Assembly (NCBI GenBank): GCA_030704615.1
Contig: CM060734.1
Span: 61,318,001-61,382,000, forward strand
Length of the DNA stretch: 64,000 nucleotides
Direction: 5' to 3'
Source: Takakia lepidozioides
Lineage: Eukaryota > Plantae > Bryophyta
In this document: piece after piece, positions 4,563 to 39,127 of the stretch
Layout: each line of letters begins with the position of its first letter
How positions within the stretch are numbered: the first letter of the stretch is position 1
Translations under genes and position numbers: made by a program
The notes under the pieces: model-generated
Database searches by the model: none
Told to the model about the DNA's origin: nothing
What the model saw: the letters and a program-made list of their open reading frames with translations, nothing else

Positions 4563-4655
4563 ATTTCATTTCTCTCTGATCTTCAGTGCCTCAGTTTCGT
4601 ACTCTCTAGAGCTGATCTTGATTGGTCCACAACAGCAACACTCTCTTTTCCTTGT

Positions 4656-5318: not shown

Positions 5319-5431
5319 GCGGCCATGATGTGCTAGTGTTCACCTTCAGGATTGCAAGTATGACCTGTACATTTAGGCCACCATGGGCCTCTAATCAAGG
5401 ATGCCCCCGGGAGGGCCACTTTAAAGATGTG

Positions 5432-5800
5432 GTGGCAACCTTCTGCCTGCTGGCAACCGTTAAGCTTTCATTCTTACCATTTAGAAAGCTCGAAGCACTG
5501 AGTTGGAGATTGATTTTTGACATGTATGCATATTTATTCACGTTCTAGTGGCAACCTTCTGCCTGCTGGCAGTTAAGCTTCATTCTGAAGCTGATAGGTT
5601 TACCATCTAGAAAGCTTGAAGCACTGAGTTGGAGATTGATTTTTGACATGTATGCATATTTATTCACGTTCTAGTGGCAACCTTCTGCCTGCTGGCAACC
5701 GTTAAGCTTCATTCTGAAGCTGATAGGTTTACCATCTAGAAAGCTTGAAGCACTGAGTTGGAGATTAATTTTTGACATGTATGCATATTTATTCACGTTC
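5432..5800 (+). repeat. Three-copy tandem repeat (units about 116-127 bp) just downstream of the SAUR stop
   Basis: Units begin GTGGCAACCTTCTGCCTGCTGGCA at 5432, 5548 and 5674 and each ends CATGTATGCATATTTATTCACGTTC. Confidence 0.95.
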
Positions 5801-13314: not shown

Positions 13315-14500
13315 AATCTATTCAATCTAACAAAGGGTTGAAAAGTGCTTATAAGGAAGTTCCATACAAAATTGTTACCAAGTAGTACTAAGCAATTGTT
13401 TTAATGAGCTAATTCAATCTTATACATGTTGGGATTAAAATTTGTTCTGACCACGTCCCCACTCTATTGTACCCCAAAGCTGAAAAATTGAGAATGGGAG
13501 GAAAAAACAAAAAAAAACAAAAAAAAAACAAAAATGGGACTTGGGCTTCAAACATGGATATGAGGTGGACAAAATTATCAATAAGAAACTAATATGGAAG
13601 AGACAGTTTGTATACAAGCTCCTATAAAAACTTTCAAAAAACAACAAGAGTGTATGGAACCTATAAAAACTTTCAATCAAATATCCCAACCTTGAACGCA
13701 TTGTATTTCAAAGTATGAATTTGCTTTCTTAATAAGCTTCAAACATGGATATAAGGTTTTAGGGGCATAAAGTTTATAAGAAATAAAAGTATGAACCACA
13801 TAAAAATATGCATGAATGTTTAGGACCTATAATTTTTAAAACATTCAACAATCAAGTCAATATAATATTTTAACCATTGTAATTTATACCCAAAGCTCAA
13901 AAATTGATTTGAATGAACTTCAAACATTTGAATGAGGTTTTGCGGTATAGGGTTTCGGATAAACAAAAATACTTCAAGTTAAAAAAACATACGTAAGAGT
14001 AAGAATTTCCAAGTAAATATCTCGATGACTCTATCATATATGTAAGCTGGAAAATGCAATTAATTGAGCTTCAAATGTAACAACTACGTTTTAGGCTATA
14101 GGGTTAAGACTATAAGGTTAAATCTCCGGCAAAAGTATGAATGATAGGGGTGATGGGAGAGTGTTTAGGACCAGATATGTTAAGCTTATTGCCTCCAGCA
14201 GGCCCAACAAATTTCAACCCAACATCCACAATCTACAAAATCCCCTCTGTCCTTTTATTCTTTTAATCAAAAAATGGTAGTTGAAGTGGGGTACATCTTT
14301 ACCTCCTCACACTGATTGGAAAGCCATTTGGAAAGAAAGTGGTCCAAATTTGGCTAGAAGAATGAACAACATTATAATTGAGTAGAACAATTATTTTTTC
14401 TCCATCATTCAAAGTTATTGAGATTTAAAACATTACAAGAAAACAAGAAAATTGGAGAGTTGTTTGCATTCATACCATTTTAGTTTTCATTATCTTGACG
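11445..14500. repeat. Very AT-rich non-coding block with an internal ~450-bp dispersed duplication and poly(A) tract; probable non-autonomous DNA-transposon-derived sequence
   Basis: About 12370-12830 recurs at about 13660-14130 (e.g. TATACCCAAAGCT...GATTTGAATGAACTTCAAA); poly(A) at 13280-13313. Confidence 0.55.
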
Positions 14501-15310
14501 ATTGTTGCTGGGGGCGGCCACATCTGTGTGTCAGGCTCCATTGTTCTCGGCTACCATGATTGCGACGCCGGGGGTAAAACCAACTGAAGTGTTTAGGCTG
14601 GCAGCTACACTCTGTGAGAGTAAGGAGGTTACTTCATCTTCTGCGCAGATAGTGGGAGGTGTAGTGCCGGAGGGATCCTCGGATTTGAGGGTCAAGACTG
14701 CCACGGCGGCGTCATGGCAAGCTGCAGCTGCCAGCTAGGCCAGCCACTAAGCGCGTCATGGTGACACATGGGGTTGTCATGTTAGACAACCATAATGGCA
14801 TTTTCTATTTGAGTAGACCGGCAGGCAAGATGTACCGGCCACTACGGTGTTGGACTTGAGAGCTCAGCCATTGATGTTGGGCAAAGCTGCTATTGCAGGC
14901 TTGGGCCTCAAGGAGGTGGACATGGAGCCTTGTCCTTTCCAGATATAAACATCTCTGGGAGGATTGGAGCAAGCGCGGGGCAAGACACGGCGTGAGTTGG
15001 CTCTCAAACTACAGCCGGATCATCCTACAGATGGCTCAGTGATGCGAGCCAAGGCCATTGTGACAGACGCAGTCTCGTACGATGTCCTTGTTGGTGAGAC
15101 AGTGTTGTACCCCATGGGCTTCACCCTGGATTTTTGGGAGGAGTCAGCTTCTTATAGGCCTGGATGGCAGTCAGGGAGGGCTGGCGTGTGCAGCTCCCTG
15201 TGACATTCATAAGAGGAGTTGCGGTTGCCCAGCGAGGCAAGATGCCGACACTGGCAGTATTTACAGCTATTGTGAGTTGGCTTGGAGAGTTGCTAGAGGG
15301 CCCGGGGAGG

Positions 15311-16069
15311 TCACTTCCAAAAATTTCCAACCGACGTGCAAAAAAATATAGGGTGCAATTTATTCACAAAAGATAAAAATTATAAAATATTTAAAAATAA
15401 TAAATGGTATATTATATTGTGATCAATGATTTCAAATTAATATAGGGTCTAAAATAATGACTGATTTTAATTTTTTCTTAAAACTAATATTGGGTTGAGA
15501 TAAATATCTATGAAAAATTCCAAAAATATATACATGCTCTTAAGGGAAAACTTAATACTTACAAAAAAAATAATGGCTACGTAATATTCAAAAAATGAGA
15601 AGGAAGGCAGGGAGCAGGTCGGGGATATCGCGACATCCTGTTGATCTCCTAAATAGACCAACCACACCAATCATGGTGTTATTAAACTACTTCTCAAAAT
15701 CTAGAGGACAATTTAAATTCAAATATGATCATACCGACAACAAGTGGGTAGATTTAGATTCAATTATTAGTTCAGTCACTATGACTTTCGATAGAGCGCA
15801 AAACGTTTATACTTTGAATGCGGATGATGCGAATGCTTTAAATGAATTTATTTCAACCAAATAATAAATTCATTTGTCTTCTTTTTTTAAATTGTATTAT
15901 TAATATAGGGTGCCTAATATTTGTTTGAAACAAAAAAATATAATTAAAATAACATGCCAAAAAATCACCATATTACAAAATTACGTAATTATAGGGTACT
16001 AAGAAATACCAAAGTAAAAGTAATACCCCTTACAAAATACCCATTTATCTCACGTGCCCTATACAAGTG
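15311..16069 (+). mobile_element. ~760-bp AT-rich insertion carrying the C-terminal ~90 codons of a transposase related to the one at 24378-28580
   Basis: ORF 15595-15864 (QKMRRK...PVDLLNRP...KYDHTDNKWVDLDSII...NVYTLNADD) aligns by eye with QRMRKK...SVDLLERP...TYDLTDNMMVDLDSII...NTYVLDAND; removing the block restores the gypsy frame (EGPGR|IASDSP); ends read TCACTT...AAGTGA; no TSD found. Confidence 0.75.
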
Positions 16070-16365
16070 ATAGCGAGTGACTCCCCCGGACTAGAGAGCA
16101 ACACTCATTCAGAGGATGTGTCACCTCCAGCAGAGCAGGATGACATGTATGGTATGGCGGAATTGTCTGTCATGGTTGCTCAGACTCCATTGTGAGGCAC
16201 GAGCAAGGATTTGCAGCGGGTTGCTAATCGGCGGATGCAACAAGCCTAGGTAGAGGCTTTTGTACCGTCAAGAGAGGAGGAGAGTGCGGAGATTGCACCA
16301 GGACCACCTCAGTTGTCACCATTGGACACCACACCTGTTGTGTGGCAGTGTCCGGATGAAGACAT

Positions 16366-17300
16366 TTGCCTTCTGGACTTGTTTGGCGGGATCAGCACCT
16401 TGTTCTACAGGCAAGTATACGGGTTCAGAGATATCTGTATGTGGAGATGGATGAGACTGCATGACGCGTCTCACTTCGTCATGTTGCTTAGTTGGTGCAG
16501 CAGTACCCTGACTTGTTGCCGGTGTCTACGGTTCATGGATATTAGCAGGTCTTGCCAGCAGACATCTCTTTGCTGGGGGCGCAGGATTTGGAGCGGGTTG
16601 GCTCCATTCATTTAGTAGTGGCGGCCCTGCCAAGGGCATTCATCAGCCGGTCATGGCAATGGATTACGAGACTCGAGGTCGGGTCTGTATTGGGAGATGG
16701 TGCAGATTTTGCGTCACTTACAACTTCATCAAGCTGTATCTCTAGCATACATCTTGGAGAATGTGCCACTGTTGGGTGATTCTCAGGCCAGGGTGATGGC
16801 CATTATGCATCAAGTCCGGTTGCACGGCTTGGGTCAACAGTGTTGCTGGATGCAGCTACAGTTGGGTCACGGGCTCATCGTCCACAGTTATGGTAAACTA
16901 ACTTGATGTCACTCGCACTGCTCAAGCGTGCATTTGATGGGGTGCAACGGCCAGCACATCTTATAGTGGATAGCATTTTGGAACGATGAGGCAGTCTCAG
17001 CGTGTGAAACACAATGACCGTTCGCCTTTGGCAATGGTCAACAAGGTGGGTCAACCACGAGCAGCACTACCTACACTACTCAGCTTTCCAAGATCGCATG
17101 CTTTCCGGGATACTGGACCTGGCCTCCTGTGGGATACTTAGTTGTAGCAGTTAGTGGAGCCCAATGCCGACGAGCGAGAACGGGCTATGGGTTTTTCCAC
17201 TGGGACCACGGCAGTACCTTCTCTTTTTGAGGCATCACATCGTCAGGTGTTGGGGCAAGCGATTGATCTCAATTGCTTGACCTGGATTATCAGCTTGGCT
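16366..17300 (+). pseudogene. C5 cytosine DNA methyltransferase domain within the retrotransposon polyprotein (frameshifts and stops)
   Basis: Motifs in canonical order across frames: I LLDLFGGIST; II YLYVEMDETA; III/IV DISLLGAQDLERVGSIHLVVA..PCQGHSSAGHGNGLRDSRSGLYWE (PCQ at 16625-16633); VI YILENV; VIII LDAATVGSRAHRP; IX/X EPNADERERAMGFSTGTT...RQVLGQAIDL. Confidence 0.9.
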
Positions 17301-19701
17301 ATGACTGAGCAACGTAGAGTGCAGAGTGCACTTCCCTTGACGGTCTCTCTGCCTACCGAGACAGTACAGGTAGTGAGTGGGGGCGAGCCGGTGAGGACCA
17401 CGTGGTGCAGACATACATGGCACACGTGGGAGGTGCCCGAGGTTCAGAGAGAGTTGGCAACCAAGGCGGCGGTGATGGATGAGGTTGGGGATTCTTCTCG
17501 GGTTGAGGAGGTCCTCAAGGATGAGATGATGGGGCAGGATGAGGCCTTGTCATTGACAGAGCAGGCAGTGGTCACTGCTCAAGAGATTACAACATAGCAA
17601 CCATGGGACGCGTCTCCTACCTCTAAGTCTGCTGGACTTAAGGTTGCAGTTACGGAGGACAATTGGGAGCCTGATATTGGACCCATTGTCACTGGAGGAG
17701 AGAGACGACGTATACCATGGTTCCTTGAGGGCTTACAGGAATTGGTTTGCTTTCAGTTTGAAGGATTTGGGAGCACTGAAGGATCAGGAGATTTGTATTG
17801 AGTTGGCCACGGACACGCCAATCTTTCGGAGACCCTATAGATACAGTGACATGGAGAGGTCTTTGATGAGGACTCAAGACCTTTGGGAGGCTGGTTTGGT
17901 GGAGCTCTCTGGTAGAGAGTATGCTTCAGCCACAGTGATGCCAGCCAAGAAGGATATTTATGGCAATTGGACGGAGAGACGTATGTGCGGTGATTACCGG
18001 CCTGTACACCATCAGACCAAGTCCGATTAGTATGTCATGCCCACATCGGAGGAGATCTTTCATGCCATTGGGCATGCCAAGGTCTTTAGCACATTGGACT
18101 TGCGGTCCAGATATCACCAGTTGTCGATCAAGGAGGCGGACAAGCAGAAGACGACATTCTGGGGGATCAATGAGCACGGGAAGGATTGCGTCTATCAGTG
18201 GCGGTTCTTACCATTCGGGCTTAAGAACGTTCTTGCAGAATTTCAGAGAGTCATGGACAGGATTCTAGCAGGGGTGGACTTTACTCGGTGCTACATAGAT
18301 GACATCATCATCTTTAGTGCTACGGTGGAGAAGCATGAGAGACACTTTCAAGTGGTGTTTAAGCGCTTGAGGGCGCACGGATTGAAGTTGCATCCGGGAA
18401 AGTGCAAGTTTTTCCACAACCAGATTGAGTATCTGGGTCAAATGGTATATCCTGGAGGATTGGGGGTACAACAGACTAAGGTAGAGGCCATTGCACAGAT
18501 TCCACGCCCCACGGATGTGAGCCGAGCTCGAGCTTTCATGGGGTTGGCAAATTATTATAGACGGTTTGTCAAGGGATTTAGTGCTATTGCAAAGGTTCTA
18601 ACTAAGCTGACCAAGATAGACCAGGAGTGACAGTGGGAAGATGAGCAAGAACGAGCTTTTCAAGAGCTCAAAGCGAGGTTGACCTCGGCGCCTATCCCGA
18701 GACGACCTATCAGGGGGTGTCCCTTTCAGCTACATACGGATTAGAGCATGCTGGGGCTAGCTTGGAGCGGTGCTCACATAGGTGGATGATGAGGGAAGAG
18801 AGTTCATAGTGGCTTATGCTAGCCGCTTGAACAACGTTGCAGAGTCTAAGTATAGCTCATATAAGGGGGAGTGCTTAGCTGCAATGTGGGCCGTGGCACA
18901 CTTCATGTGCTATCTATACGGCAATCTCTTCACCCTTGTCACGGATCACCAGCCACTCAAGTGGTTGATGGAGTCAGACAAGCTTACGGAGAAGCTTGCA
19001 CGGTGGGCACTTATACTCCAGGAGTATGACTTTCAGGTTGTGCATCGACCGGGTTTGGTCAATAGGGATGCGGATGGATTGAGTCGCAATCCATGCACGA
19101 GTCAGCAGGATGACACTGGAGCTCGGTGGCATGGTGAGATGGACGAGTAGATGGTGTCGGGATGGCATGCATCTGCCTTTTTATGTATCTTGGCATCGGG
19201 AGGTCAGGTTGGACCTACAACAGGGATGACTGTAGATGGAGTGTCTGAGGACCCTGAGGCTAGTGATGAGCCAGGTGGTGCCAGAGATATATATGAGGAT
19301 TCGGCTGTGTTGGACTACCTCCGTACTGGAGACACGGCAGCCACTGTGACTGCCAAGGAGAGGGATCGGATCTTGCAACGAGCCAAGAGGTTCAAGTGGG
19401 AGGGGATACACTGTGCTCCAAGTGTGGGAGGATGGTCGGGTGAGGATCGTGCCTTACCCAACCCTGGGGATGCACTCTTTATAAAATGTCCGTATCACAT
19501 GCGTTCGCCGCCTACTACAAAAACCCCATGTATACGGGTCCTTGGATCATTTATACCCCCTCTGTACATACATTTTGAAGATTATAAAATCCCCTCCTGT
19601 AAATATATAGAAATTTGTAATTTTTAAAAAGTACCCCTAGTCCAACCTGACTCGCAGCTGACAGAGTTCAATTCATTCAATTATGTGACAAGCATTTCAT
19701 T

Positions 19702-22060
19702 TCACCAATACTCCCCACAAGAACAAACACCATTTTGGAAGTGGTGAAAGCGGTTTGCATCCTGTACAACAATCTCTTGCTTAGCTATCTTTGAGATGAA
19801 TTTGGTGGCTGTGTGGCAATCACCACACATCCGAAGATTCCTGATGATCCCCAAAGACATCCCAGAGGGTGTGCTAATAAGCCCAAAAACAATGGTCAGC
19901 TTCTCATTGTGGTGGCAAAGAGACGATTCTTTAAGCTCTTCCTCAACATCATGCAATGCAAAGTGCGGGCTTCACCCCTTCGCACATTATTTGCTCATAG
20001 GTCTCCAAAGCCTCCATCCCGCGCCCTTGTTGTGCATATCCTGCAATCATCGCACTCCACGACAACACATCTCATTCAGCCATACCGTCGAACACTCCCT
20101 TCATACATGTCCACGAGGGTATTGTTCAAAATGATATTTGATACAATTGCAAATCTGACAATGTCGCCATGGACCTCTTTGCCCTTTTCCAGAGCTGACA
20201 GGCTTGCACACGCATTGCAAATGTACACAAACGTGATGTGGTCGGGCTTCACCCCTTCCCCCATCATTTGATCATAGGTCTCCAAGCCTCCATACCAAGT
20301 CCCTGTTGTGCATACCTTGTAGGCATCGCACTCCACGACACCACATCTCGTTCAGCCATGGAAACTCCCTTCGCATCCTTAATGCACCCACATTTGGCAT
20401 ACATGTCCACCAGGGGAGTGTTCAGAATGACATCTGGTACAATTCCAGCTTTGACAATGTCACCATGGACCTCTTTCCCCTTTTCCAGAGCTCGCAGGCT
20501 TGGACACGCATTGCATCTAGCCAACATTATATTCCACGTGATCAAAGATCGTTGAGGCATTCTGATGAACACTTGGTGAGCATCAATGATGCTCCCGCAC
20601 ATAACATACATGTTGACAAGGGTGTTGAGTAGAAAAACATTTGACGTGAATCCACTTTGGATGATGTGAGTATGCACCTATTTTCCAGCTTCCAGACCTT
20701 CCATCTTGATGCACTTAAGCAAGAGACAGACATACATATCTGAATCTGGTGAAATGCCTTGTGATGTGGTTAGGCTTCACCCCTTCCCCATCATTTGCTC
20801 ATAGGTCTCCAAAGCCTCCATCCTGTGCCCCTGCTGTGCATACCCTACAAGCATCACATTCCACGACACCACATCTCGTTCAGCCAGAGTGTTGAAAACT
20901 CCCCTCACATCCTTAACGCACCCACATTTGGCAAACATGTCCACAAAGGCAGTGTTCAAGATGACATCTGGTACAATTCCAACTTGCTCCCAGGCTTTCA
21001 CACGCATTGCAAACACAAACAAATGTGATGTGGTTGGGCTTCACCGCTTCGCACATCATTTGCTCATATGTCTCCAAAACATTCCTACCACACCTATGCT
21101 TGGTAAATCCTTTCAACATAATATTCCACATGATCAAAGATCATTGAGGCATTCTGTTGAACACTTGGTAAGCATCCCTGATGTTCCGGCACTTAACATA
21201 CAGGTTGACAAGGGTGTTGAGTAGAAAAACCGCGTGAATCCACTTTGGATAATGTGAGTGTGCATGTGCTTTCCAGCTTCGAGACCTTCCATCTTGATGC
21301 ACTTAAGCAAGAGACAGACATACATATCTGAATCTGTTGAACTGCCTCCTTGGTTTAGAGTCTGTAGAGCCTCTGTCAGGCTGTCACACAAAGTATCTTC
21401 ACATGCCCAGAAGTGCTAGAAGAGGCATTGTGGACTCCCTCTCTTGATCCTCTTTCAGAAGCTGTGGTCATGATTGAGGTGCCTGATTTATCAACTGTGC
21501 CGCTGCAGCTGATGCCTTTAGTTGACCATCTACCCATGCAGGTTTCTTGTAGCTACTGACCCCCACATGGAATCAAGGTAATCTGGAGCTTGAAGTCCAG
21601 CCCTCTTGGATGAATCTGGACCCACACTCTATCCATGCTCATTCAAGAAAAAACACAGAAAAACTCTGATAACAGGGAAAAACATGCTGAAATGTGTTGA
21701 AGAAGGTACCTTCATTAGCAGCGCCTTGTTCTACCAAATGCACTGCTGCCGCTGCTGTTTCCAGTTGACCATCTACCCACACAACTTTCTTGTAGCTATT
21801 GATCCGTAGGGAATCAGAAGTAATCTTGTGTTTAAAATCGACCTCTTGGATGAATCGTGTTCCTCGACACCACCTCGTTCAGCCATAGTGTTGAACACTC
21901 CCTCCGCATCCTCAATGTTCCCACAATGGCATACATGTCCACAAGGGTATTGTTCATAATCACATCCGGTACAATTCCAGCTTTGGTGATGCAACCATGC
22001 ACCTCTTTGCTTTTTTCCATGGCTGCAGGCTTGCACACGCATTGCAAACGCACACAAATG
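19702..22060 (-). pseudogene. Rearranged PLS-class PPR-DYW gene fragments (cargo of element A), ending in an intact DYW C-terminal segment
   Basis: Repeated ALEKGKEVHGDIVKAGIVPDVILNTxLVDMYAKCG and AERDVVSW motifs in broken frames; duplicated N-terminal block (about 20530-20760 vs 21115-21350); DYW part HHNEKL...NLRMCGDCHTATKFISKI...DANRFHHFQNGVCSCGEYW* at 19702-19956. Confidence 0.9.
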
Positions 22061-22239
22061 AATTCAAAGGTCAGATGGTGGGGTCAGCTGCAACATACGT
22101 CCAACACCAGATATCCTAAGTTAATCGACTCTATATCTTGGAAACATCGACTCTATATCTTTAAAACTACATGCTCTAGCTTAGGCTTGGATTTCATGGC
22201 TAATGGTTCCATCTCGAGACTTGATAACAGGGGTACTTG

Positions 22240-24003
22240 CAATGACCAAAAGTGCTTCTAATAGAGTCCCACATCAATTCAATCTCAAAGAAGTTCGTCC
22301 CTTGACTGGCTGGAAAGCGGTCTTAGACATTGGTGATTCAATGGGGCGCTCTTGGAAGACAACCAAGGGCAAGGACTTCAACTTGAGAGTTTCTAATCGG
22401 TTTGATGCTCTGGATGAGGTTGAATCCATGGGGTAACTGTCCCCCCTTTGCAGAACGGTTGGCCATCCAGGAGCAATCACAAGCTACCTAGACGACAAAC
22501 AATTCACATGCAATGGGTTGGCTTGCGGCTGGCCACTTTCAACTTCTCAGGGTTGACCAATCAAAGGAAACAACTCGAAGTGGGACAAGTTCTTCGGACT
22601 AATGATATTCATATTTGTGTTGGGCAAGAAACATGGGAAATGTCGGATAAACTGGTTAGAGATGTCAATGGTTATAAATGGGCAGGTAAGATGTGTACTC
22701 TCAAGGCAGCCTCTACCAAACGCGGTCAAAAAGGGGTTGGATTCTTTGTCCGTGATTTCTTGTTTGACAATTGTGAAATTATCAACAAGGGTTTGAGGTA
22801 CAAGCATAGTATCTGGCAAAAACTGAATCTGAAGGGCGGCATGAGTACAAAGGACCTCTTTGTGGGTTGTGTTTACATGCCCACAGAGGGGACCCTTAGT
22901 GCTGACGCATACAAAGCCTTCGAAGATGTAAAATTGGACTGTGCTTCGTTCCTTGCCAAAGGTTAGGTGGTGCTATTGGGTGACTTCAATGCCCGGGTGG
23001 GCAAAGGGCTCCATCAGGACGATATCATTGGGCCTTTTGGTGAGGACGAGCTGAATTCTAATGGCAGACGGTTAATTAACTGTCTGGAAGAGCTTCAGCT
23101 TTTGACCTTGAATAACAGGACAAGAGGTGACCAAGTGCAGTGGACTCGTGAGAAATCCCAAACTGGGGAACGTTCCATTGTGGACTATATCATAATGGAC
23201 AAAAATTTGTTCCCCCAGTGTGCCAATGTGTTGATCGACAGAACTGATATTGGTACCTCTGACCACTTCCTGGTTTGGACTGAGATCAAAAGGTGTTTTC
23301 CCAACACCAGAGTAGAAGAGATTCTCAAGGACCTGGACCTGGATCCGCAAGTCTCGACCCTGCTGGATAAATCCGACTTAGAGGCTGTAGTGTCCAAAGC
23401 CATGTCTGTTGCCATGAGATTGTCTGATGAAAATGAAGTTAGGCAGAAAACTTCCCTGAACTTGTTTCCAGTCAGTGACATGGGGGAGGACATCTTGGAT
23501 GACCTCAAGGGTCCACCCACTCTCGGCACTAGACTGAAATTTAAACTCAGGGCAGGAAGCCTACCTTTGAACAGCAAACAGAAGCAGAGAGGAAAAGGAG
23601 AGTGCACTTCCCATTGTGTGGGCAATCTGAAGACAATATTCATTTTCTGATACACTGTCCGGGGTTCTCTCATTGATAACATGAAGGTTGCAATGACCAA
23701 AAGTGCTTCTAATAGAGTCCCACATCAATTCAATCTCAAAGAAGTTCGTCCCTTGACTGGCTGGAGAGCGGTCTTACACATCGGTGATTCAATGGGGCGC
23801 TCTAGGAAGACAACCAAGGGCAAGGACTTCAACTGCAGGTGACCAAGTGCAGTGGACTCGTGAGAAATCCCAAACCCTAAACGTTCCATTGTGGACTATA
23901 TCATAATGGACAAAAATTTGTTCCCCCAGTGTGCCAATGTGTTGATCGACAGAACTGATATTGGTACCTCTGACCACTTCCTGGTTTGGACTGAGATCAA
24001 AAG
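22240..24003 (+). mobile_element. Internally deleted LINE: AP-endonuclease domain fused to a C-terminal remnant, RT missing, with partial tandem re-duplication
   Basis: LATFNFSGL, VGQETW, GVGFFV, CVYMP, LLGDFNARVG, NSNGRRL, SIVDYII, SDHFLVW motifs (22520-23290); 23690-24003 repeats about 22239-22383 joined to about 23124-23292. Confidence 0.85.
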
Positions 24004-24314
24004 AGGACCTCTTGTGTGTGCCTACTTGTGTCTGTAGTCAGGTAACGACGGATTGGTTAGTGAGAACCACCACAGTGCAGCTGAGCACGACCTGCTTAGA
24101 CCAAGCTGACTCTCCCAAGAACCTGTTAACCGCTGGTTTATTACTTAGACAAAACAGGCTATCATCACTGCTGCCCATTTCCTAAGACATGCAACAGAGG
24201 TTGTCCGAAGGTATGCTGTACTTCATAATCGTTTAAGGATAGCTAAACCATGAACATCGTATGAATTTATCTCCTTGGAGGCTGCTTAATCCTATTGATT
24301 AAGCTCAACTTACA

Positions 24315-27300: not shown

Positions 27301-28884
27301 TGGTTCTACTTATCAAATTGTTCAAGGATAAGTTTAATCATGTGCAAGTTCCTTTGAGCCTTGTTGATTCAGATGTGTGTGAAATATTCTTCAGCAAAGT
27401 GGGAGGTATGTTACAGAATGAGAGGACATATGACGGGTGTGATTTGATTGAGAGTGCGGGAGCATTAACACGCATATCCGAGTTCGAGGTGAATCCAAAA
27501 GGACCCAAGTTCTCAAGAGCTCACAAGAAACAAGAACACATTTGGTTTTCTTTGGAGAAGAAGCCAGATATCCCCCTTGCTGATTTGTCCGACTTTTCTA
27601 CTGTCCAATCGGATGATTGCATTGTGGAGGCTTTGAAAACTGGATTTCTAGAAGCGCAACTTTTATGCCATAAACTTGGGATGAAACCAAACAAAGCGAC
27701 AAACTTGGATTGGTGGAATGAGCCATGGACAATTGAGAGACAAATGGAGGCCGAGCTATTCAAAAGCATGGAAGAGGAGGGTGATGATGTCGATGCCATA
27801 GATTCTATTTGTCCTCTTAATGCAGACACACATATTCAAAATGAGGTCGTGGAAGATGAATTGGTGTGCGGGCCTTCGAATTCAATGGAGGATATTTTGA
27901 GCCAACCTTTGGATGATCATGCGGAAGAGGTACTTGTTCAAAGTGAATTGAGACATACTCTGGATGCTGTCATTGATGAGTTTGAACAAGAGAAAGATGG
28001 ATTGAAGGCGGTGGTTCCATTTGTCAAAGTAGACGGGAAGACCATATTCAAAAGCACTTTGGTTAGCCAACTCAATGGCAACCCTATTCTATCCAAGGAT
28101 AGATTGACACGAGTAAGAAGTGCATCGATGTTGTTTTGCCGAGAAAACAAACCAACTACCAGCAACAAAGCCACGAGCTTGGGATTGGGTTCGGATTGTG
28201 CTGTATTTTTTGTTGATGAAGAGACTGTGATCCAAACTACAAACAAGAAAGGCAGACCAGGGAAAACCTGCAGAGGAGCAACCAAAGGCACTTGGTATTT
28301 GGGCAGGGTTCAAAGAATGCGGAAGAAAATCAATAAGCGGTTTGTAGAATGTATGGATTCTGTTGATTTATTGGAGCGTCCTTCTCATATGGAGATTGGA
28401 TTAGCATGGTACCAAAAAATTCGAGGAGGGGTCTATACGTACGATTTGACGGATAACATGATGGTTGATTTGGATTCCATTATCGCGTTAGCATGTTTAA
28501 AGTACAATGTCAAGTCAAACACATATGTACTTGATGCAAATGACCGAAAAGTCTTTGACAACTTTATCAAAGACAAATAATTTTTTTAATTAATTTGTTA
28601 GATTTTATTATGTTTTAAATGAATAAATTTGATATAATATAAAAACATACATATACATATTGGAGGGTTATTTTTAACGATGGAAAATGAGAATATGCAT
28701 ACAGAAGGGGGTACTTTTTAAAAATTGTAAATTTTTGTATATTTACATGAGGGGGTTTTATAATCTTCAAAAAGTATGTACAGAGGGGGTATAAATTATC
28801 CAAGGACCCGTATACAGGGGGTTTTTTTATTAGGCGACGAACGCACGTGATACGCACAGTTTATAAAGAGTGCACCACCCAGGG
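24315..28884 (+). mobile_element. P-element-like DNA transposon (element B) with transposase and intact 3' terminus; 5' terminus missing
   Basis: 3' end TTATAAAGAGTGCACCACCCAGG(G) at 28861-28884 matches the element A TIR; no matching TIR upstream, where sequence abuts the truncated 3' LTR of gypsy 2. Confidence 0.8.
24378..28580 (+). pseudogene. P-element/THAP9-like DDE transposase with N-terminal Cys/His zinc-finger-like regions; several frameshifts and in-frame stops
   Basis: VMVAEDET, IIGHASDGDSRRRK, DQDFIHNGKILVN (cf. DxxHLxKxxRN), DRQNWATAQRL (cf. DKMNVxxAxQL), DSDVCEIFFSKVG (cf. NQDxLExFFSxxR) in P-like order; frameshift in the G-run near 26120, TAG at 26763-26765. Confidence 0.7.
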
Positions 28885-31800
28885 CTTGGGTGCAGTACTT
28901 GTAGCTTGGTTTAATGGTTTTGCCCTTATCATCCGCCGTCTTTTGGCAATCCGTTGGATTGCACCATCATTCTGCCTCTGTGTTATGATCGAAGGGTAGT
29001 GGTGTCCCACGAAGTCTAGCCCCCAGCGCTGAAATGGTTCTGTTGGTAGTATTGGGTGCAGAGTCCCCTTCCCCGTTCGTTCTACTGGTCCCATCCTCTG
29101 GCAGACATCACACTGTTGACAGTGTTCATAAGTGTCTCCAAATACAGTAGCGCCACCAGTAGCCTGCTAGTAATATTTTCTTTGTTGTCAGGTCCGAACT
29201 GAAGTGTCCTCCTGCAATTCCTTCGTGTAGTTCTTGCATTACTGTTTTGGCTTGTTTTTTGTTTACACATCTTCTCAATATGGAGTCAATTCCTCTTTTG
29301 TACAGAATCCCCTTGATTACTGTGTATGGCTTGCTTTTCATTGAAAGCTTTCTCCTGTCATCTTTGGTGTAATCTTTAGGAAATTTCCCTGTGTTCAGAT
29401 AGTATTTGATTGACCGTTGCCAATCATCTTGATCTTGATCCTGAATGTCTTCTGATTCTTCTTTGGTGACTGTATAAGCTCCAATACTGATATTGGCCAA
29501 TTCTTGATTATTTGTTTCTTCGTTTTCCTTGTCATCTTCATCTTCTGGATCTGGCTCTTCCTCAATAATAAGTCCTTCATCAAGAGGTTCATCTTCATCT
29601 GATGAATCCTCTTCTTCATCAGTGTCATCCATGAGTTTCAGAGCATCTGGAAGGTCATAGTCTCCTTGAAACATGAGCATTTATAGTATCTGTCTCTTCA
29701 TCTGGTGCTTCTGGTTGAACAACAAACAAAAATGCATCGGGAAGTTGATCCTCTACCCCCATGGCTGGTTCTCCTGTAGTAATCCTTGACAGATGATCTG
29801 CTATAACATGTAATCTCCCTGGTTTATGAACAACTTCAAAGTCATACTCATGAAGAAGTAATAACCATCGAGCAACCCTGCCACTAGCTAGTGGTCAATT
29901 TGCTAAATGAACTAGAGCCTGATGATCAACAATAAACTTAAAGCGATTGCCAAGTAAATAATGCCGAAATTTTTGAACAGCATAAATCATTGCCAATGCT
30001 TCCCTTTCTGTGGTGCTATAGTTCTTTTCGGCTGCTGTCAACAATCTGCTTGCATAATAGATTGGTGAATCTATTGTGCATGTCACATTCTGAGCTAAAA
30101 CTGCTCCCAAAGCAATGTCTGATGCATCACTGTGTACATGAAATGGAAAATCCCATCTTGGATTTATCAGAATTGGTGTTGCTGTGAGTGCCCTTTTTAG
30201 TGAATCAAATGATTCCTGGCAAGCTGGAGACCATCGGTATTCGGCATCTTGCTTCAGCAGTCTATAGACTGGTGCCGCTGTGAGCATATTTGTCCATGTA
30301 CCTTCTGTAATAGCTCGTCTGTCCCATAAATCTCTTGAGTTTCTTGGGATTTTTTGGTGGTGGTATTTTCTGGATAACCTCCACTTTCTGTGGATCTACC
30401 AGAATTCCCTGTTGGCACACAATGTGTCCCAATAATAATCCTGAATTCACACAAAATGTACATTTTTCCGGGTTGAGACTTACTCCATTGTTTCTACAGG
30501 CTTGTAGGCAAAGTTTTAACTGTGCCAAATGTTTGGATTTATGTCCGAAGACACTGAAATCATCCAAAAATACCTGCATAAAATCGTTAAGATAGTTCTT
30601 GAATATCTCAAATTCGTTGAAATGTAGCTGGTGCATTGCAAAGTCCAAATGGCATGACTTTGTAAGCATAGGCTCTCCATTCAGTGATGAATGCGGTCTT
30701 TTCTCGGTCTTCTTCTGCCATCTGCACCTGGTTGTACCCACTAAACCCATCCATGAATGAGTACATCTCATGTCCAGCCACTGTGTCCAACATTATTTCA
30801 ATAAAAGGTAGTGGAAATGGGTCTTTCTTGGTTTACCACGGTCGGTGGGGTGATCTGGAGCGTACATCTTGGAGTTTAACACCAGCAGTGATTCGTTGGC
30901 CGTTTCGTATTCGTTCACGGTTCTGTAAGGCATCTGTGTTGGCCACGGTTCACCATACGGTATACGGGGTGGTAATGTTGTCCTCCAGATGAATTGGGGT
31001 CTAGCTGTCGTGGTGCCCTGAATTTGTGTTGCCACATGTCTTAGTACATGCTGATTCACCGTGTCGTTATGAATGTAGTATGCACTTGCAGTTTCACGCT
31101 CCTCATCTTCAGTTTGATCTTCCTCGTTGGCGTATAAGTCATGTATAAGGGCTTTGTCATGTATTCCTTGGTAGTCTTTTAACTTGTTAATATTAATTCG
31201 TCCCACGAATTCTTGTTCCAAGGTCTGCAAATCAATAGTTCCATTGTCATGTACCTTTTTTATTTGAAATGGTCCCATCCATGGAATTTTCAATTTTCCG
31301 CCCAGTTTGATCTTCTTGATTTTTGGTAACCATAAAACAATGTCCCCATCCTGGAAAGATTTCTCTTTCCCTTCGGATATTCTTTTTCTTCGTTGTTCGT
31401 GAATCCGTGCCATGTTATCTGTGGCGTCTGCTCGAACTTCTTCCAAATGGAATAACTCATATTCCCTGACTCGTAGGGATTCTTCTAAACCCCGTAGTTC
31501 ATGAGTTCCGGTTCGTAGTGTGGGTATCATACATTCAATGGGTAATAGTGCCTTTGCTCCATACACCAGTTGAAATGGTGTATGTTTCGTGGTCACATTG
31601 TAGGATGTCCTGAATGCCCATAGTGTTGTGTTCAATTTGGTGTCCCAATCTGTACGATTGGCATTTACTATCTTGGTTAAGATAGTGCATAATATTTTGT
31701 TGATAGATTCGGCCTGACCGTTTCCTTGAGGATAATAAGCAGTACTCTTGTGATGTACGATCATGAACTCCTCCGTCAAGCATTTTATGGCATCATTTAT

Positions 31801-34800
31801 GAAATGTGATCCCTGATCATTGACGAATTCCAGTGGGGCAACCAAATCGTGTGATGATGTTTTCATATAAGAATTTGGCTGTCGATCTGGCAGTGGTTTA
31901 ACTTGCGGTAGTCCACACACACTCGCAGTTTTCCATTTTTCTTGGGTACTATCACAATGGGCGATAACCATTGTGGTGTCTCTACTGGGTAAATGAATCC
32001 TGCATCCAGTAACTTCTTGATTTCTTCCCAAACTTTAGCTGCATAGTTGGGGTTCATTCTGTAACAGTTCTGACGAATTGGTTTTGTGTCAACTTCCAAT
32101 TCAAATCGGTGCTGACAGATATTAGAAGGTATACCCTTCAAATCTTTGTAGTTCCAGGCAAATACATCCTTGTATTCAGTGAATAATGCAGTAGCTTCTT
32201 GTAAAAATGATTCTTCAAGACCTGCACTTACGCGTATTATCTGTGGTTCTCCCACTGTTCCCAGATTCACTTGAATCAATTGAGTTTCTTCCGTTACTGT
32301 CCATCCTACAATCTCTTGTCCGATGGTTGCAATTGTGGCAGGTACTTCACTGATTTGAATGTCTTCTTCCCTTTCTTGATAGAAACGGGCCGGGTGTTGA
32401 GGTGTGTCCATCGCTTCTTCCTTTGGATCTTCCGTTCTTGAAGTATTTGGTTCTCCTTGGGTGTTCACCATGTGACATCCTACTGTTGTGGTATGCTTGA
32501 CCACCAGTTGTCCAATAGATTCCAACTGTGGATGTGCTGCTTATACTGTGGCTTCTTCTTCATCCGACAGTCCACTGGACCAATCATACTCTTACACTAT
32601 GCAAGGTCGTTTCTCTCGTGGAATGGTACCTCGTTGCTTCGTAGTGATGGTGACTTGTTCTGCTCCCTTTTTTATTGTGAGAGTCTGACTTCCCCAATCG
32701 TGGTGTGATTGGGCTTGTGTTAACCATGGTCGGCCAAGTAGTAGCGAATATCCTTCTGCCACATCCTCCATTCTGAGAATGGTTATTGATACTTCGTATA
32801 TCAGTCCTGCTACTTCCATTGCAAGTCGTCTGATGATCCCCAATGGCTGCACTTTTCGTTGATCAGCCATTCGTACTGTGAATGGAGCGGGTTCCATGTG
32901 CCCCAATCCTAGTGACTTCTTCATCTTTTCTGTCATGATATTCACTCCGGATCCTCCATCGATGAGTACATCCGTTACCATCTTCCGTCCAATACGTATT
33001 TGTATTACGGGTATTGCTTCGTCGTAATCTGGAGTTTGTCATATAGTTGTGGGTTTAATCGTGTAAACCTCTGGTGTTGGTTTTTGTTTTGGTGTAGGGG
33101 TCAATGCCTCGATTGCCCGAAATAAAGTTTTCTTGCAGTGTGGAGCAATTTTTAATAATTGTCCAATGGTAATTTGAGTCTTGGTCTGGCAGATTACTTC
33201 GGCCAATTCTGTTTCCGTGGTTGTATTCGTGGTCTTCACCGTTGGTCTGATTTGCTTATCTGGAGTTGGCTCTCCAGAAGGTATATGGGTTCCCTCTTGC
33301 ATTTGAGCTATGGCTTTACTTACCTCCTGGTGTAAGCTCTTTTCCTCCTGCCATGCTACACTTTCTGGATATTGTTTATGTTCTTCTTCAATCTCCTTAT
33401 CTAGAGGTTTCTCTTTCTTGGCCTGAGTTCGGGTTACCGCAAGGGTATCCACTACAGGGGTTACCACACTTACGGCTACACTTGGTCCGGCTTCCATATT
33501 TCCTACTTCTGCCTCATGCTTGATTCGCAACTGGCATTCATGTTTCCAGTGCCCCTCTTTCTTGCAATAGTGGCATCTCGTGCTTTCTTTGTTTTTGGGT
33601 TGATGCTCCCTATCCCATGGTGGATATTCATCTCGTGGCCTTTGATAATGATTACCTATATTGTATCGTATTGGTCCGTCTGATCCTCCCCGTCGGATTT
33701 GGACTTGGTGTACCCCCACCTCTCGTGTGTACCCACTCTTCTTGGCCCGTTGGTTGTAAATACAATGGTTGGCATTATGATTGTTCATATGACAAATATC
33801 ATAGTATTTGTCCTTCATATGGCATTCCGTTGCCAGGTGTCCTGCAGTCCCGCATTTGTGACACCATGTTGCCTTTCGTGACCCTTCATCTTTAAAATTC
33901 TCGATAGCCTCTGCTATCTTCTGATCCAAAGTGGTTTTGTCAATCACTTCTTTCTTCTTTTGCTTGGGTTTTTCTTCATCATCAGAATCTTCTTTTTCCA
34001 AAGGATCCTTGGAATCTTTGCTTCTGCTCTGATGGAATCCCAATTCCAACTTCTTTGCAGTCCCTACTGCTTCAGCCAAAGTGTTGTTAGGCATGACTGT
34101 AACCATGGTTACGTATTCAGGACAAAGTCCATTGATGAACCATGATTTTTGCAAATCATCCCCTGGTGCTTGAGGTAGCTTCCTTATCAGAGTCTTCATT
34201 CTCTCCAGGTAGTCGACTACCAATTCTTTCTTTTTCTGTCTCAAGTTCTGTAATCATGTGAAGATTTTAGACGTGGATTTGTTGGATCTATATCTTTCTT
34301 GAAACGCGGCTCTCATATCCGCCCAATTAGCAAAGTGATTGGCTGGGAAGGTTGCCAACCATTCAATGTTTTTCCGGGCCATTGAACAAGGAAATAATCG
34401 GATATTTTCCTGGTCTGTTGCTTCATTGTAAATGGTGCACATGTTCTCAAATTGATTAAGATGGATATCTGGATCAGATTTCCCATCATATAAAGGAAAT
34501 GGTGGTCTGGTTTTGCTTGCTGCTAAAGCCATTGGTGCAACTGTTTGCCCAAACTGGGATGGTCCCATTGCTGCTGGCTGTGGTGGTGTTGGTGTTTGTC
34601 TTCCAAACAGTGATTCAAAGCTAGGAGGCCCTTGTCCCAATGATAGCCGTCTTCCAGCTGCTGTCCCTACTAAGCTTAATGAATCTTTAAAAGCTTTGAG
34701 TGCGGTTCTGGCTATCATTTCTAGAGAAGTGGTTTCACTTCTTTCACCTTCTTCACTCAGAATGGTATCAAATCTTTCTTCTAATATTTCAGCAAAGCCT

Positions 34801-37356
34801 CGATTTGGACTTGTTACTGTAGAAGGTTCTTCAGATCTTTCTTGTGGTAACCATTCACCAAGTGCATTACTGGCAACTTCTTCTGGTATAGTGTTCCCAC
34901 TTCCCACCGATCCGATTTCCTGATCTTCTGGTTTATCATTGTCAATTTGTCTTGATGTCTCACCTTGAATAATATTCAAGTTCTATAATTCTGGGAACTC
35001 TTCTCTTAACCGAGCCTCCCTTTCTGCAGCATATTTCTCTATTCGTTCAGCTCTGTCTTGTTTAGCTTTTTCTTTAATTTCCTCATTCATTCCCACATCA
35101 TATGCAGAATTCATTTTCGGCACCCTTTAAACAGTCTTGGTATGTCAGTAAAGAAATTTTATAGTGGTCTCTACCCTTTCTTCAAGATTTACCCTATCTT
35201 GCCAGAATCCGTATTACAACTTAATTTTTCTTTTTACTGATTGATCACCAAACTTTTAATGGGCACAATAATACCATCTGTCTTTTTCAGTGTATCTAAC
35301 TTGCAATAAGTCTTTGGGTATCCAGTACTCCACTGCTTCTATGATCATGTGACAATATTCATAATTTGAACATCCTTCTCTGAAAATATAACTAGTGTAA
35401 CAAACTTCTCTGATTGGCTAGACGAGACAACCATTCTTCACTTCTGATTCTACATTCCCAAGGTGCTCGTGTAATACTGATCACTCCTCCCTTCAATCCC
35501 CATTTGTGATCTTCTTTCGCCACTGAAAGAAAGATCTTCTGTTGTATTGTTATTGGTAAGCCATGAAAATTTTTCAGGGATATTTTCCATTCATTTGCTT
35601 CCGTTGACTCGTTCTGTCGTGATTTCAAGAAATCACTGAGTAACCATCCTTCTTTGAGTACTCTTGAACTCAACATACCGATAGTCCCCAGTATGGTCGC
35701 CAAATGTTAACTGCTGGTTTATGACTTAGACGAAACAGGCTATCATCACTACTGCCCATTTCCTAAGACATGCAACAGAGGTTGTCCGACGATATGCTGT
35801 CAGAAACGATTATGAAGTAATCGTTTTAAGGATAGCTAAACCATGAACATCGTATGAATTTATCTCCTTGGAGGGTGCTTAATCCTATTGATTAAGCTCA
35901 ACTTACAGTCTCTTTGACATGAGAGATTGTAGTCGTAAAGACTGAAGTCATTCCATTCATACAACAATTGATAGTCAAGGCAAAACAAGAACTATCCTGA
36001 GATGATACACATTCTCACCATCTCACGTTCCCTCATAATGCACATTTTCTCCATCTCACATTCACTCTACAAAGAGATACTTCAAATAGAATGGCTTTAC
36101 TTCAGAGTTCGTCACATCGTCACAGAAGTACCCACTTAATACGTACTGATCACTCATACTCATACTCATATTGCTCTCTCTCTAAGTGGCGTGCAGCCTT
36201 TTTATACTATGCTCGAAAGAGCCGTTACAATCTGCGGTCGTTAATGACCGTTGCCTAACTGCCTACGCAACCTAAAAGGTTGCTAAAAAGTGGCTCGTTG
36301 CAGTGGTCATGAGCCATAGTGGTAAACGGTCCACTACTCCCTCTATTGGTTAAAGCCAATGCTAACGTGGCCGTGTGATATCGTGGTTCATGACCCACGG
36401 TTACTTCACTACCCACTACTGCTATCGTGGTAATGTACCCTTGTCCCGCCATTGGCTAAGTACCGCGTACTTAGCCGTCTCTGCCTGTGGCCAGGTAGTG
36501 TACGTCCATCACTACCCGGTATGTCCCGTTGTGACCCTCGTTGTCTGTCCCTCGTAGCATAGCCGTTATTAGAACCTTGTAAACATCTGGAAGAATACCA
36601 AATCAGGTATTAATAGGAGGCAAGAGCCCGCAATAGCAAGATGGAAAAATTCTTCACATCGTACCTTAAGAAAATGCCACACCTTGCGATTGCAGTTGTC
36701 CCACCATTGTCAATCTTTTAAAAACTCATGTCAGGTCTGCTTAGTGCTGCAAATTCAGGGCCGACTCGGATGAGAGGGCAAGACAGACTGAAATAGGTCG
36801 AAGAAGAAGGTGCCCTCACCACATTGTCCTTGACCTTGTGTCATGACCCATGGAGGATTTGCCTTCCCATCAACCCAAAAAGATCGCTTCCCTAAACTCT
36901 CCCCTAAACCTTGTAAACATCAGGAAGTATATCATGCCCTGTGGAGAGGAGAGGAGAGGAGAGGAGGGAAAAGAGAAAGCCCGCGGAAGGGAAGGTGAAC
37001 GCAGGAGAGGAGATGAAAGGAGATGAGAGGAGGAGAGGGAAAAGAGAAAGCCGCGGGAGGGAAGGGGAGAAAGATCGCGGAGAGAAAAAAAAACAAAAAA
37101 ACAAACAAAAAAACAAACAAAAGGATGATCCCGCGATTTGATCCCGCGATTTGATCCCGCGGTGCATCGCAACCCTAAACGTCGCTCTTACCACTACACT
37201 ACCCCTTAAAACTCAATAACCCCCTCCTGTAAAATTATATTTAAGGTGTTTTAAACCCCCCTCTGTATGTATAATGTTATACATGGGGGGGTTTAAAATA
37301 CCCCCTCCTGTGCACGCACGTGGCTGGTACATTTAATGAGGAGTGCACCCCCCAGG

Positions 37357-38636
37357 TACCCAACACAGCGTGCATGGTTAGTGTGGCATGCCCATGAGGA
37401 GTTGGGGCATTTTGGAGTGCGACGCACTCATAGTCTACTATAGGGGCAGTATTGGTGGCGTGGTATGCACACAGAGGTGCAACAATTCGTGGCTAGGTGC
37501 ATGGTGTGTGACAGGGTGTGTGCTTCATTCAACGCCCCTACACCACAGTTGCATCATTTACCCATCATGGGATTGGGTTATAGGTGGAATCTTGACTTCG
37601 CAGGGTCGTTGTCACTGACGATACGCCACCACAGATATGTGTTAGTGATGGTGGAGCACTTTTCCAAGTGGATTGAGTTGGTTTTATTGCCTGACAATGT
37701 TAGTGATGGGCTGTGTATGCATTCTTGGATCGTGTACTTAGTCGATTCGGTGTTCCAGCTGAGGTACTCACGGACCAAAGGAAAGAGTTCTTGGGGGAGT
37801 TTCAGGCTTTGTGTGATAGAACCTTGATAGACCACCGTACCACTTCTCGGAATCATCCTGAGGCCGATGGCTTGGCAGAGAGAGTGGTGCAGACAGTGAA
37901 GAGGGGTTTGCGCAAATATGGCTTGCAAAATGGACACCTAAGAGATTGGGATCTTTAGGTACCTTGGTTAGCCATGGACTACAGGTTTAGCAAACAAACA
38001 TCACTTGTCTCCTTCTCATCATATTTCCTTCTCTTTGGCCGAGAGCTGGATTTGTCTGCATCTATTCGCAGGGAGGCTGCACTAGTCCTCAACCTTAATG
38101 ATCCGGATGTGTGGACACAAGCATGTGCCCAGCGGGCAAAGTTGTTCAAGAGAGTCATGCCTATGGCTTTTGAAAACCTTGCTATTTCCCAACACCGAGA
38201 CACATTGAGGTATGTCACTATACGTGGAGGGGGATAATATCGGCCAGGTGTTCGGCGTTTTCACCCTGGGGACTATGTGTATCTGCAGCAGACAGCGCCT
38301 ACGACCTTGGATGTCACAGCAGGACGTGTAATTCTAAGGGTAAAGGAGGTGTTGCCTTCAAGAGTGTTGATTCTGGATGATCGAGATGGCATGGTATGGA
38401 AGGACCATGTGCGCAATTGTGCGTCATGTCACCTTCCACATGTGAATGAGAGGATAGATCCCAAACTTGCAATGGTACCTACAGGGTTGCGTTGCATGCT
38501 ATGTGGGCATGCTCGTGGTGCCGCCACTATGCTAGTGTGTGATCGATGCTCAAGAGGTTGGCACATGGGATGCTTGACACCAACTCTTGAGAGGGTTCCT
38601 GATGGAGATTGGTTATGTCCACACTGCTTGGGATAA
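37357..38636 (+). pseudogene. Integrase and C-terminal PHD finger of the methyltransferase-bearing gypsy element
   Basis: HAHEELGHFGVRRT, CMVCDR, RWNLDFAG, VEHFSKWIE, VLTDQRKEF, HPEADGLAERVVQTVK; PHD CMLC...LVCDRCSRGWHMGCLTPTLERVPDGDWLCPHC* (about 38490-38636). Confidence 0.92.
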
Positions 38637-38895
38637 TGGCAGTGGATATGACTAGTAGCAGCTAATAAGACATGGGAGGCCAAACTCATATGAGTCAATA
38701 CCCGAGATCTCAGGCTCAAGTTCACAGGTTGCAAGACGGCGACTACCAATGGGACAACTTTTGTACCCAGCCTCTTGATCTATCGAGTTTGAGTGTAGTA
38801 GGGACAGTGGTGGAGGACTTAATGAAGCTATGTCACTATCACATCTTGTGGCTACCTGGACTTAGAGGGACCTAAGCGCTAGCTAGGGGGGCGAT

Positions 38896-39127
38896 TGTGA
38901 TGGATTAGTAGCTGCACTAGTGGTTGGACTAGTGGCTGCACTAGTGGTGGCTAGTGGCTGCCTAATGGTTGGACTAGTGGCTGCACTAGTGGTGACTAGT
39001 GGTTGCCTAGTGGCAGCCTAGTGGTACACTAGTGGTGGACAAGTGATAGACTAGTGTTTGGTGTGCACATATGTTGTGTGGTTTTGGACAGCGATGTAGT
39101 TGTGTAGTAATATGTATGCGCACGACA
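38896..39127 (+). repeat. Truncated 3' LTR of the methyltransferase-bearing gypsy element, with CTAGTGG tandem motifs
   Basis: Follows a polypurine tract; begins TG; repeated CTAGTGG; homologous in reverse complement to about 60245-60401. Confidence 0.8.

Follow-up and report, generated by a model that had tools for sequence, protein, structure and literature searches.

Known elements and the Takakia locus

Gypsy retrotransposons that carry a DNMT3-type cytosine methyltransferase are already known. In KnitGypsy-Dnmt3 of the alga Klebsormidium nitens, the Gypsy domain set is accompanied by an intronless DNMT3-type domain in the coding region, which is under purifying selection and lies in the same open reading frame (ORF) as the reverse transcriptase (RT); the element combines DIRS-type repeats with Gypsy domains (Figure 4c legend, PMC5890265). 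The question of why a retrotransposon should encode the very enzyme that usually silences such elements dates from 2018, and the sole tested Gypsy case showed no activity. We analysed a stretch of 64,000 nucleotides from Takakia lepidozioides (GCA_030704615.1, contig CM060734.1, positions 61,318,001 to 61,382,000), called the window here, which holds a dead copy of an old plant Ty3/Gypsy family once two nested DNA transposons are set aside. In this family a methyltransferase precedes the RT, a PHD finger closes the integrase, and a conserved in-frame stop of the readthrough type stands between methyltransferase and RT.

REM1 is reportedly a PHD-bearing Gypsy element of Chlamydomonas. PHDs in Gypsy elements are documented from this alga (PMC9940879) and have been called widespread (PMC6673714). 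Gypsy-7a_cRei shares with the window family a PHD in the polyprotein, which was proposed to guide insertion, and a long terminal repeat (LTR) with sub-parts; it differs in that the available text names no methyltransferase and lists the PHD before the integrase (PMC9940879). EpiLTR and DAM-LTR also combine a methyltransferase with a chromatin reader in a retrotransposon, but with an adenine methyltransferase, a DNMT4-related DNMT and a chromodomain, and they are stated to be distinct from the streptophyte Gypsy-DNMT3 elements (bioRxiv 10.64898/2026.05.21.726589). A methyltransferase domain is not mentioned in the available part of the REXdb account of plant Gypsy lineages (Phygy, Selgy, Tat, chromoviruses; PMC6317226), and the accessible text of two later papers from the group of PMC5890265 still cites the streptophyte elements to the 2018 work. 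No published land-plant Gypsy-DNMT3 element and no such stop after a methyltransferase was found in the literature searched, whose coverage ends short of subscription journals, Repbase and theses.

Since both join DIRS-like repeats to Gypsy domains, the split-repeat layout ties the window family to KnitGypsy-Dnmt3, and the Klebsormidium RT P0082 falls in the same RT clade. Because the stop splits the DNMT from RT and RNase H, which stay in the same frame, the window family is a variant and not a plain member of that kind. Its host is a land plant instead of an alga, and its apparent copy number is far higher. The word PHD occurs zero times in the text of PMC5890265, whose figures and main supplement may still show a PHD or the ORF layout. 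The Gypsy-DNMT3 kind and the split-repeat layout are in print; what this analysis adds is the conserved readthrough-type stop after the methyltransferase, the target duplications found at the split ends, the near-intact copies and the very high abundance. Two near-intact natural copies are available (L002, L004), and the family occurs in the model liverwort Marchantia.

Domain order of the window copy

Domains were called from a six-frame reading and a Pfam run over 24 stop-free pieces, on the plus strand:

14500-15300, plus strand: protease and end of the Gag-protease linker, 5'-truncated and decayed (tblastn to P0031 and to ORF1 of L002)
16358-17315, plus strand: DNMT3-type C5 cytosine methyltransferase with several stops and frame changes (PF00145; 65% identity to L019 over 307 columns)
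17595-17603, plus strand: in-frame amber stop in type I readthrough context, TAG CAA CCA, with the TAG at 17595-97 (sequence; family conservation)
17725-18760, plus strand: reverse transcriptase and connection (RVT_1; 62-72% identity to relatives)
18761-19150, plus strand: RNase H (RT_RNaseH, E 1.8e-25)
19151-19462, plus strand: linker and start of the integrase zinc-binding region, severed by the large insertion (P0005 alignment)
37365-38234, plus strand: integrase with H2C2 zinc finger and DDE core, broken (Pfam pieces, protein alignment)
38484-38633, plus strand: PHD finger at the integrase C-terminus, without the aromatic cage for trimethylated lysine 4 of histone H3 (H3K4me3) (PF00628, E 1.8e-10; nearest structures; cage residue)

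The window copy has the Ty3/Gypsy order of protease, RT, RNase H and integrase, with a Gypsy-type RT and a DDE integrase. A sequence-only reading of this DNA had proposed a Gypsy element with a C5 methyltransferase between protease and RT and a PHD at the integrase end, and Pfam together with the alignments bore this out. PF00145 matched 16619-16903 (E 3.1e-8, 33.9 bits against a cut-off of 22), which is inside the interval 16366-17300 where that reading had placed the enzyme. RVT_1 matched 18031-18627 (E 7.6e-27), RT_RNaseH 18782-19147 and PF00628 a part of the piece 38238-38633. The Integrase_H2C2 and rve pieces at 37330-37955 each stayed under the Pfam cut-off because the integrase is broken. 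The protease pieces of the window copy had zero Pfam matches; at 14520-15176 they aligned with Marchantia P0031 in its protease region (44% over 225 amino acids, tblastn), and the protease motif is DLR.

The methyltransferase had been described as having motifs I, II, IV, VI, VIII and IX/X in canonical order. Motif I (LDLFGG at 16373), the catalytic PCQ with its Cys codon at 16628-30 and ENV at 16757-65 are as described; motif VIII reads AHRPQ and has lost its second Arg in the window copy. As had also been supposed, this copy is dead, with numerous stops and frame changes, and neither gag nor a 5' repeat was found within the 64-kb window. Contig depth in a run of the same organism climbs about 60-fold from bin 14316-14519 to bin 14520-14723.

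Methyltransferase and PHD as family traits

The RT piece of the window was used as query and gave 106 longer relatives. The nearest named ones were from the liverworts Calypogeia fissa (72-73%) and Marchantia polymorpha (71-78%), followed by Coleochaete scutata (69%), and the more distant named ones from Closterium and Klebsormidium (42-49%). A methyltransferase was carried by 12 of the 14 relatives with at least 450 amino acids ahead of the RT; nine stored proteins went into the profile used for this, of which eight belong to those 14, and ten carry an independent PF00145 mark. The two without it fall in the outgroup of the RT tree, and all methyltransferase-bearing rows fall in one RT clade (67 of 74 rows, support 100/98, midpoint root), which includes charophyte algae. 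A word-based search with the 95-residue methyltransferase piece found no relatives; a HMMER search for the methyltransferase gave 81 matches.

We also examined loci on metagenome contigs, namely the best 80 of 471 confirmed, which are partly redundant and mostly decayed; one distant ordinary Gypsy element from viral contigs (L081) was excluded from the counts. Among these best 80, 51 loci extend 2 kb or more upstream of the RT and 46 of them had the methyltransferase in the same slot; the PHD was found in 32 of 40 testable loci (absent in eight), and both extra domains in 23 of 29. The five loci without an upstream methyltransferase were L009, L031, L041, L049 and L060, and L009 still has the conserved stop. 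It means that the slot before the RT is a family trait and not a one-off insertion, and that the element belongs to a multi-copy family, as the sequence-only reading had thought.

The methyltransferase tree and the RT tree, both proposed in that reading, place the window beside the same nearest neighbours, so the two domains were inherited together. The reading had credited the land-plant element itself with pairing methyltransferase and PHD. This is not supported: the pairing is old and inherited, because it occurs in one ORF in the distant relatives P0032, P0051 and P0054 and because charophytes are in the RT clade.

In a run of the same organism, summed contig depth was 270,000-1,340,000, similar over methyltransferase, RT, integrase and PHD (single listed contigs 47-85); this sum is not itself a copy number, and read roughly it corresponds to thousands of copies of the family in the organism of the window.

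In the related element P0087, whose branch is long in the RT tree as well as the methyltransferase tree, the same methyltransferase follows RNase H and precedes the integrase instead of standing before the RT, which is a second slot. P0183 is a DIRS-like element with one protein containing RT, then a C5 methyltransferase of the same type, then a Dam adenine methyltransferase. The annotated Marchantia genes P0004 and P0031 (Mp_2g26090, MARPO_0091s0058) are copies of the same element, and their gene models have no linker of the kind that bears the stop in relatives; the predictor has perhaps removed it as an intron. For annotation, it should be considered that gene callers end their models of these elements at the stop or bypass it by splicing, and that the element domains may be taken wrongly for DNMT3 genes of the host.

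The conserved stop after the methyltransferase

One colinear polyprotein had been proposed for the element. Its domain order stands; the single polyprotein does not, because a conserved TAG at 17595-97 splits it after the methyltransferase. In the near-intact copy L002 there are two clean ORFs of 1369 and 1047 amino acids in the same frame with one TAG between them: ORF1 is Gag-protease-methyltransferase and ORF2 is RT-RNase H-integrase-PHD. In L004 the stop occupies the corresponding position.

The stop site was directly aligned in 55 loci, with duplicates and three singletons omitted. In the 49 alignable loci, seven of which were the references themselves, there were 33 TAG, 15 TAA, one deletion and no sense codon. 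The context was scanned in 70 sequences (69 loci and the window), which form 59 non-redundant groups and 10 subfamilies at <80% RT identity. TAR-CAR-YY was present 290-375 nt upstream of the RT anchor in 39 of the 59 groups and seven of the 10 subfamilies, and in 0-4 of the 59 groups in nine control windows. Five of the seven motif-bearing subfamilies, including that of the window, have the full CARYYA, and two have CAR-YYC. The context persists though the linker preceding it is 20-38% identical between subfamilies.

Decay cannot explain this stop, because ordinary CAG codons mostly stay Gln (turned to TAG in 7/20 and 4/20 at two RT codons) and few decay stops (15 of 1093) share the TAR-CAR-YY context. 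The TAG at 17595 is a conserved family feature. It is also the reason why many database relatives start some 140 residues ahead of the RT piece.

The plant-virus readthrough motif of type I, that of the tobamoviruses, is UAG-CAR-YYA, and the arrangement in tobacco mosaic virus, one in-frame stop with the polymerase downstream, is shared (PMC3542737). By its sequence context, the stop is likely read through by ribosomes, which would all make Gag-protease-methyltransferase and would continue into RT-RNase H-integrase-PHD in a few per cent. Stops are also described between pol and env in SIRE1, where suppression occurs, and at the gag-pol junctions of Tca2 and VdLTRE5 (PMC2829016, PMC3441728, PMC2194720); these are placed after gag or pol, unlike the window family, in which the stop comes after the protease and the captured enzyme.

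In L027, a single locus of the Klebsormidium-like branch, TGA CGG stands at a different place, 210-218, directly after the methyltransferase; TGA CGG is a type II readthrough context (PMC3542737).

Class of the methyltransferase and of the PHD

A profile of 34 family rows matched DNMT3A best (E 1e-25), then DNMT3B (2e-22), DRM (3e-12) and HaeIII (4e-10), with other bacterial enzymes weaker. The structure model of the intact L002 methyltransferase domain had a pLDDT of 94, and with it all 31 Foldseek rows shown were DNMT3A, 3B or 3C (TM ~0.7). The family methyltransferase is a non-permuted DNMT3-class domain. Family rows, with the window row left out of the per-site counts, keep the motif I Phe in 30/30, the catalytic Cys in 38/42 and the Glu in 33/43, and the motif VIII arginines, whose codons contain CG, are often decayed in dead copies.

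The dN/dS calculation suggested in the sequence-only reading was done for one near-intact pair (L002 and L004) and gave 0.12 (methyltransferase), 0.06 (PHD) and 0.03 (RT). Between young dead copies dN/dS drifts towards 1, as expected. Methyltransferase and PHD are both under purifying selection.

PHDs that read H3K4me3 (ING/BPTF type) have an aromatic cage Trp two residues before a zinc-binding His. At this position the 39 family PHDs have Gly (38) or Ala (1), which is not the residue of H3K4me3 readers. The nearest solved PHDs are those of CHD4, ATXR5, KDM5A/B PHD1, PHF12, WSTF, PHF21A and BAZ2. These fingers bind unmodified H3 tails.

Split repeats at the element ends

Complete relatives end as A1...B1-A2-B2, which are split repeats and not ordinary LTRs. 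The window has the following end features:

38862-38895, plus strand: conserved stretch ending in a polypurine tract, ahead of the terminal repeat (92% over 39 nt against the same place in L010)
38896-39127, plus strand: terminal B repeat of 232 nt, TG...CA (comparison with complete relatives; contig depth drop)
60249-60399, minus strand: partial second B repeat (87% over 145 nt), without target duplication

B-A-B was found at the 3' end of 15 of the 25 loci with enough 3' DNA, and A1 was also seen in four. Complete relatives do not have the identically laid out LTRs of Gypsy elements at both ends, but they do have TG...CA termini and a target duplication in the Gypsy range of 4-6 bp: it is an exact 4 bp in three of four (L010, L039, L052), and in L036 two of the four bases agree. 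Their B1/A2 junction reads CA-2 nt-TG, which resembles joined integrase ends.

The window keeps only one B at its end, and the A and the second B of complete relatives are absent there. Contig depth drops past 39127, and other host copies run into different sequence that starts like the A repeat of L010. A second LTR had been noticed at about 60.3 kb; the match there, 60249-60393, is a partial B sub-repeat on the other strand. LTR finders miss A...B-A-B ends.

Proposed working of the element and other explanations

Through a leaky junction, retroelements fix how much structural protein they make relative to enzyme (PMC3542737). Here the junction sits after the methyltransferase, so this enzyme would be on the abundant, Gag-level side. 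We somewhat favour the following reading as a whole: a DNMT3-type enzyme closes ORF1, a PHD closes ORF2, a readthrough stop lies between them, the cDNA is methylated and the PHD steers insertion. All translating ribosomes would yield Gag-protease-methyltransferase and a few per cent would continue to RT-RNase H-integrase-PHD. The protease would release the methyltransferase inside the particle, where it would outnumber the RT and might methylate cytosines in the cDNA, probably at CG as for DNMT3A and SymbioDIRS-Dnmt3, so that a new copy would arrive premarked like host DNA. Methylating the cDNA in the particle would be the simplest job for so many copies of a de novo DNMT joined to Gag. Methylation of the cDNA by freed enzyme in excess over RT, which has its analogy in the proposal of de Mendoza et al. 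for DIRS elements (PMC5890265), has in our view about even chances. The scarce, integrase-bound PHD may bind the unmodified H3 tail, select chromatin unmethylated at H3K4 and bias insertion away from H3K4me3 promoters; judged from its sequence, this might equally prove right or wrong. The position of the stop would be a built-in dosage switch: a methyltransferase wanted in structural amounts points to a role inside the particle.

A wider picture is proposed only tentatively. In this abundant Gypsy family of non-seed land plants, a readthrough stop would make DNMT3 a Gag-level cargo that premethylates every cDNA, and a scarce integrase with a PHD reading unmodified H3 would place the copy. Writer and reader would echo animal DNMT3-ADD, these genomes would have in the family a second source of de novo methylation, a mobile one, and split-repeat replication would go together with a DDE integrase.

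Several observations speak against the favoured reading. The largest subfamily and L077 read TAG CAA CCC ATG, in which the sixth base is off the consensus and the ATG right after it permits reinitiation. Methyltransferase and RT are in one unbroken ORF in P0032, P0034, P0041, P0051, P0054, P0148 and P0207; because of these seven relatives, and as reported for Klebsormidium, the stop is not required across the clade. A consistent RNA structure was sought 3' of the stop and none was found (z +1.1 to -3.0), and a comparable junction in Tca2 directed no readthrough in yeast (PMC2194720). The class of the PHD was assigned from one residue and the nearest structures only, and the relatives P0068, P0148 and P0207 are without a PHD. 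The loci were drawn from few metagenome projects and are mostly dead copies. The Klebsormidium enzyme, in the only published assay, gave no methylation in yeast, a result that its authors deem inconclusive (PMC5890265).

The methyltransferase could work after integration, on host chromatin or on its own genomic copies (self-silencing, site shaping), or on RNA, instead of on particle cDNA. Such action is among the options listed in PMC5890265, bulk expression would also yield free enzyme, and the window copy has the C-to-T/G-to-A excess typical of methylated DNA (213 of the 394 differences listed for run X1). But host enzymes by themselves account for this decay pattern, and the fusion to Gag and protease would favour packaging, so we regard post-integration action as unlikely.

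It is a little less probable again that ORF2 is expressed with no readthrough, whether through reinitiation at an ATG close by, through an internal promoter or through splicing over the stop as in Ogre, where an intron parts GAG-PROT from RT-RH-INT (PMC6317226). The ATG two codons past the stop in the largest subfamily would suit reinitiation, and the Tca2 junction contains a minor promoter (PMC2194720). Against this, near-intact copies have the same frame on both sides of a single stop, and CAR-YY is conserved while its flanks diverge. The first in-frame ATG past the stop is 47 codons on in L001 and 116 codons on, inside the RT, in L002, and there is none early in the window. One contig, from a run that is presumably RNA, also spans 17223-19394 colinearly, which is weak evidence.

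We find it improbable that the domain is retained for DNA binding or as a decoy with methylation lost. The Klebsormidium domain was without activity in yeast, but human DNMT3B likewise failed in the same assay (PMC5890265), the catalytic Cys, the Glu and the motif I Phe are the majority state in the family, and the DNMT3-like model is a confident one. The remaining explanation, a one-off insertion of the methyltransferase together with a TAG that arose by deamination of CAG in dead copies, could draw on the heavy decay of the window copy and on the ordinary CAG codons that do become TAG, and it is refuted by the family-wide slot with like contig depth over the four domains, by the absence of CAG at the site in all 49 alignable loci and by the stop in near-intact copies, which leaves it practically no probability.

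Nested insertions and neighbouring sequence

Two insertions interrupt the window copy:

15301-16090, no strand assigned: small nested non-coding element of 790 bp with terminal inverted repeats (8-bp target duplication 15293-15300 / 16091-16098, 7/8 alike)
19463-37356, no strand assigned: large nested DNA transposon of 17.9 kb with inverted ends (perfect 8-bp duplication 19455-62 / 37357-64)

The small insertion had been delimited as 15311-16069, and the 8-bp duplication corrects it to 15301-16090. Contig joints in a run of the same organism show that other host copies skip 798 nt here, and contig depth inside the element is 3,400-5,500 against about 500,000 on both flanks. The 790-bp element is foreign to the retrotransposon family.

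The cut proposed for the large insertion, 19463-37364, agrees with our result and consists of the element plus the duplication at 37357-64. Contigs of the same organism join directly across 19463-37356, and the P0005 alignment breaks at residue 657 (19460) and restarts at residue 655 (37351). The insertion contains PPR fragments, a fragment of a long interspersed nuclear element (LINE), a transposase-like ORF and an ordinary Gypsy element. Its long ORF (ORFs 25628-28580) had no Pfam match, and its Atlas look-alikes scored 0.94-0.97 for unnamed fungal proteins and 0.87 for P-element-like transposases. Possibly the insertion is a land-plant DNA transposon of the P-like type that carries PPR gene fragments. 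The PPR fragments at 19.7-22 kb are about 70% identical to the PPR gene at 45.1-47.9 kb. The ordinary Gypsy element (gag, zinc knuckle, protease, RT, RNase H, integrase) lies at 28861-35400 on the minus strand and its pieces are apparently shuffled; 19456-19637 matches 28708-28891 in inverted orientation (90%).

Downstream, a non-LTR retrotransposon with RVT_1 and a C2H2 finger occupies 39128-41077 on the minus strand, and its end exactly abuts the B repeat. Decayed hAT-like transposase pieces were recognised by eye at 53928-55692, minus strand, with no Pfam match at 0.01. A search with the SAUR-like ORF of the window gave no match that would place the host lineage within the land plants. The surroundings in the window contain genes of land-plant type, namely SAUR and PPR with E motif.

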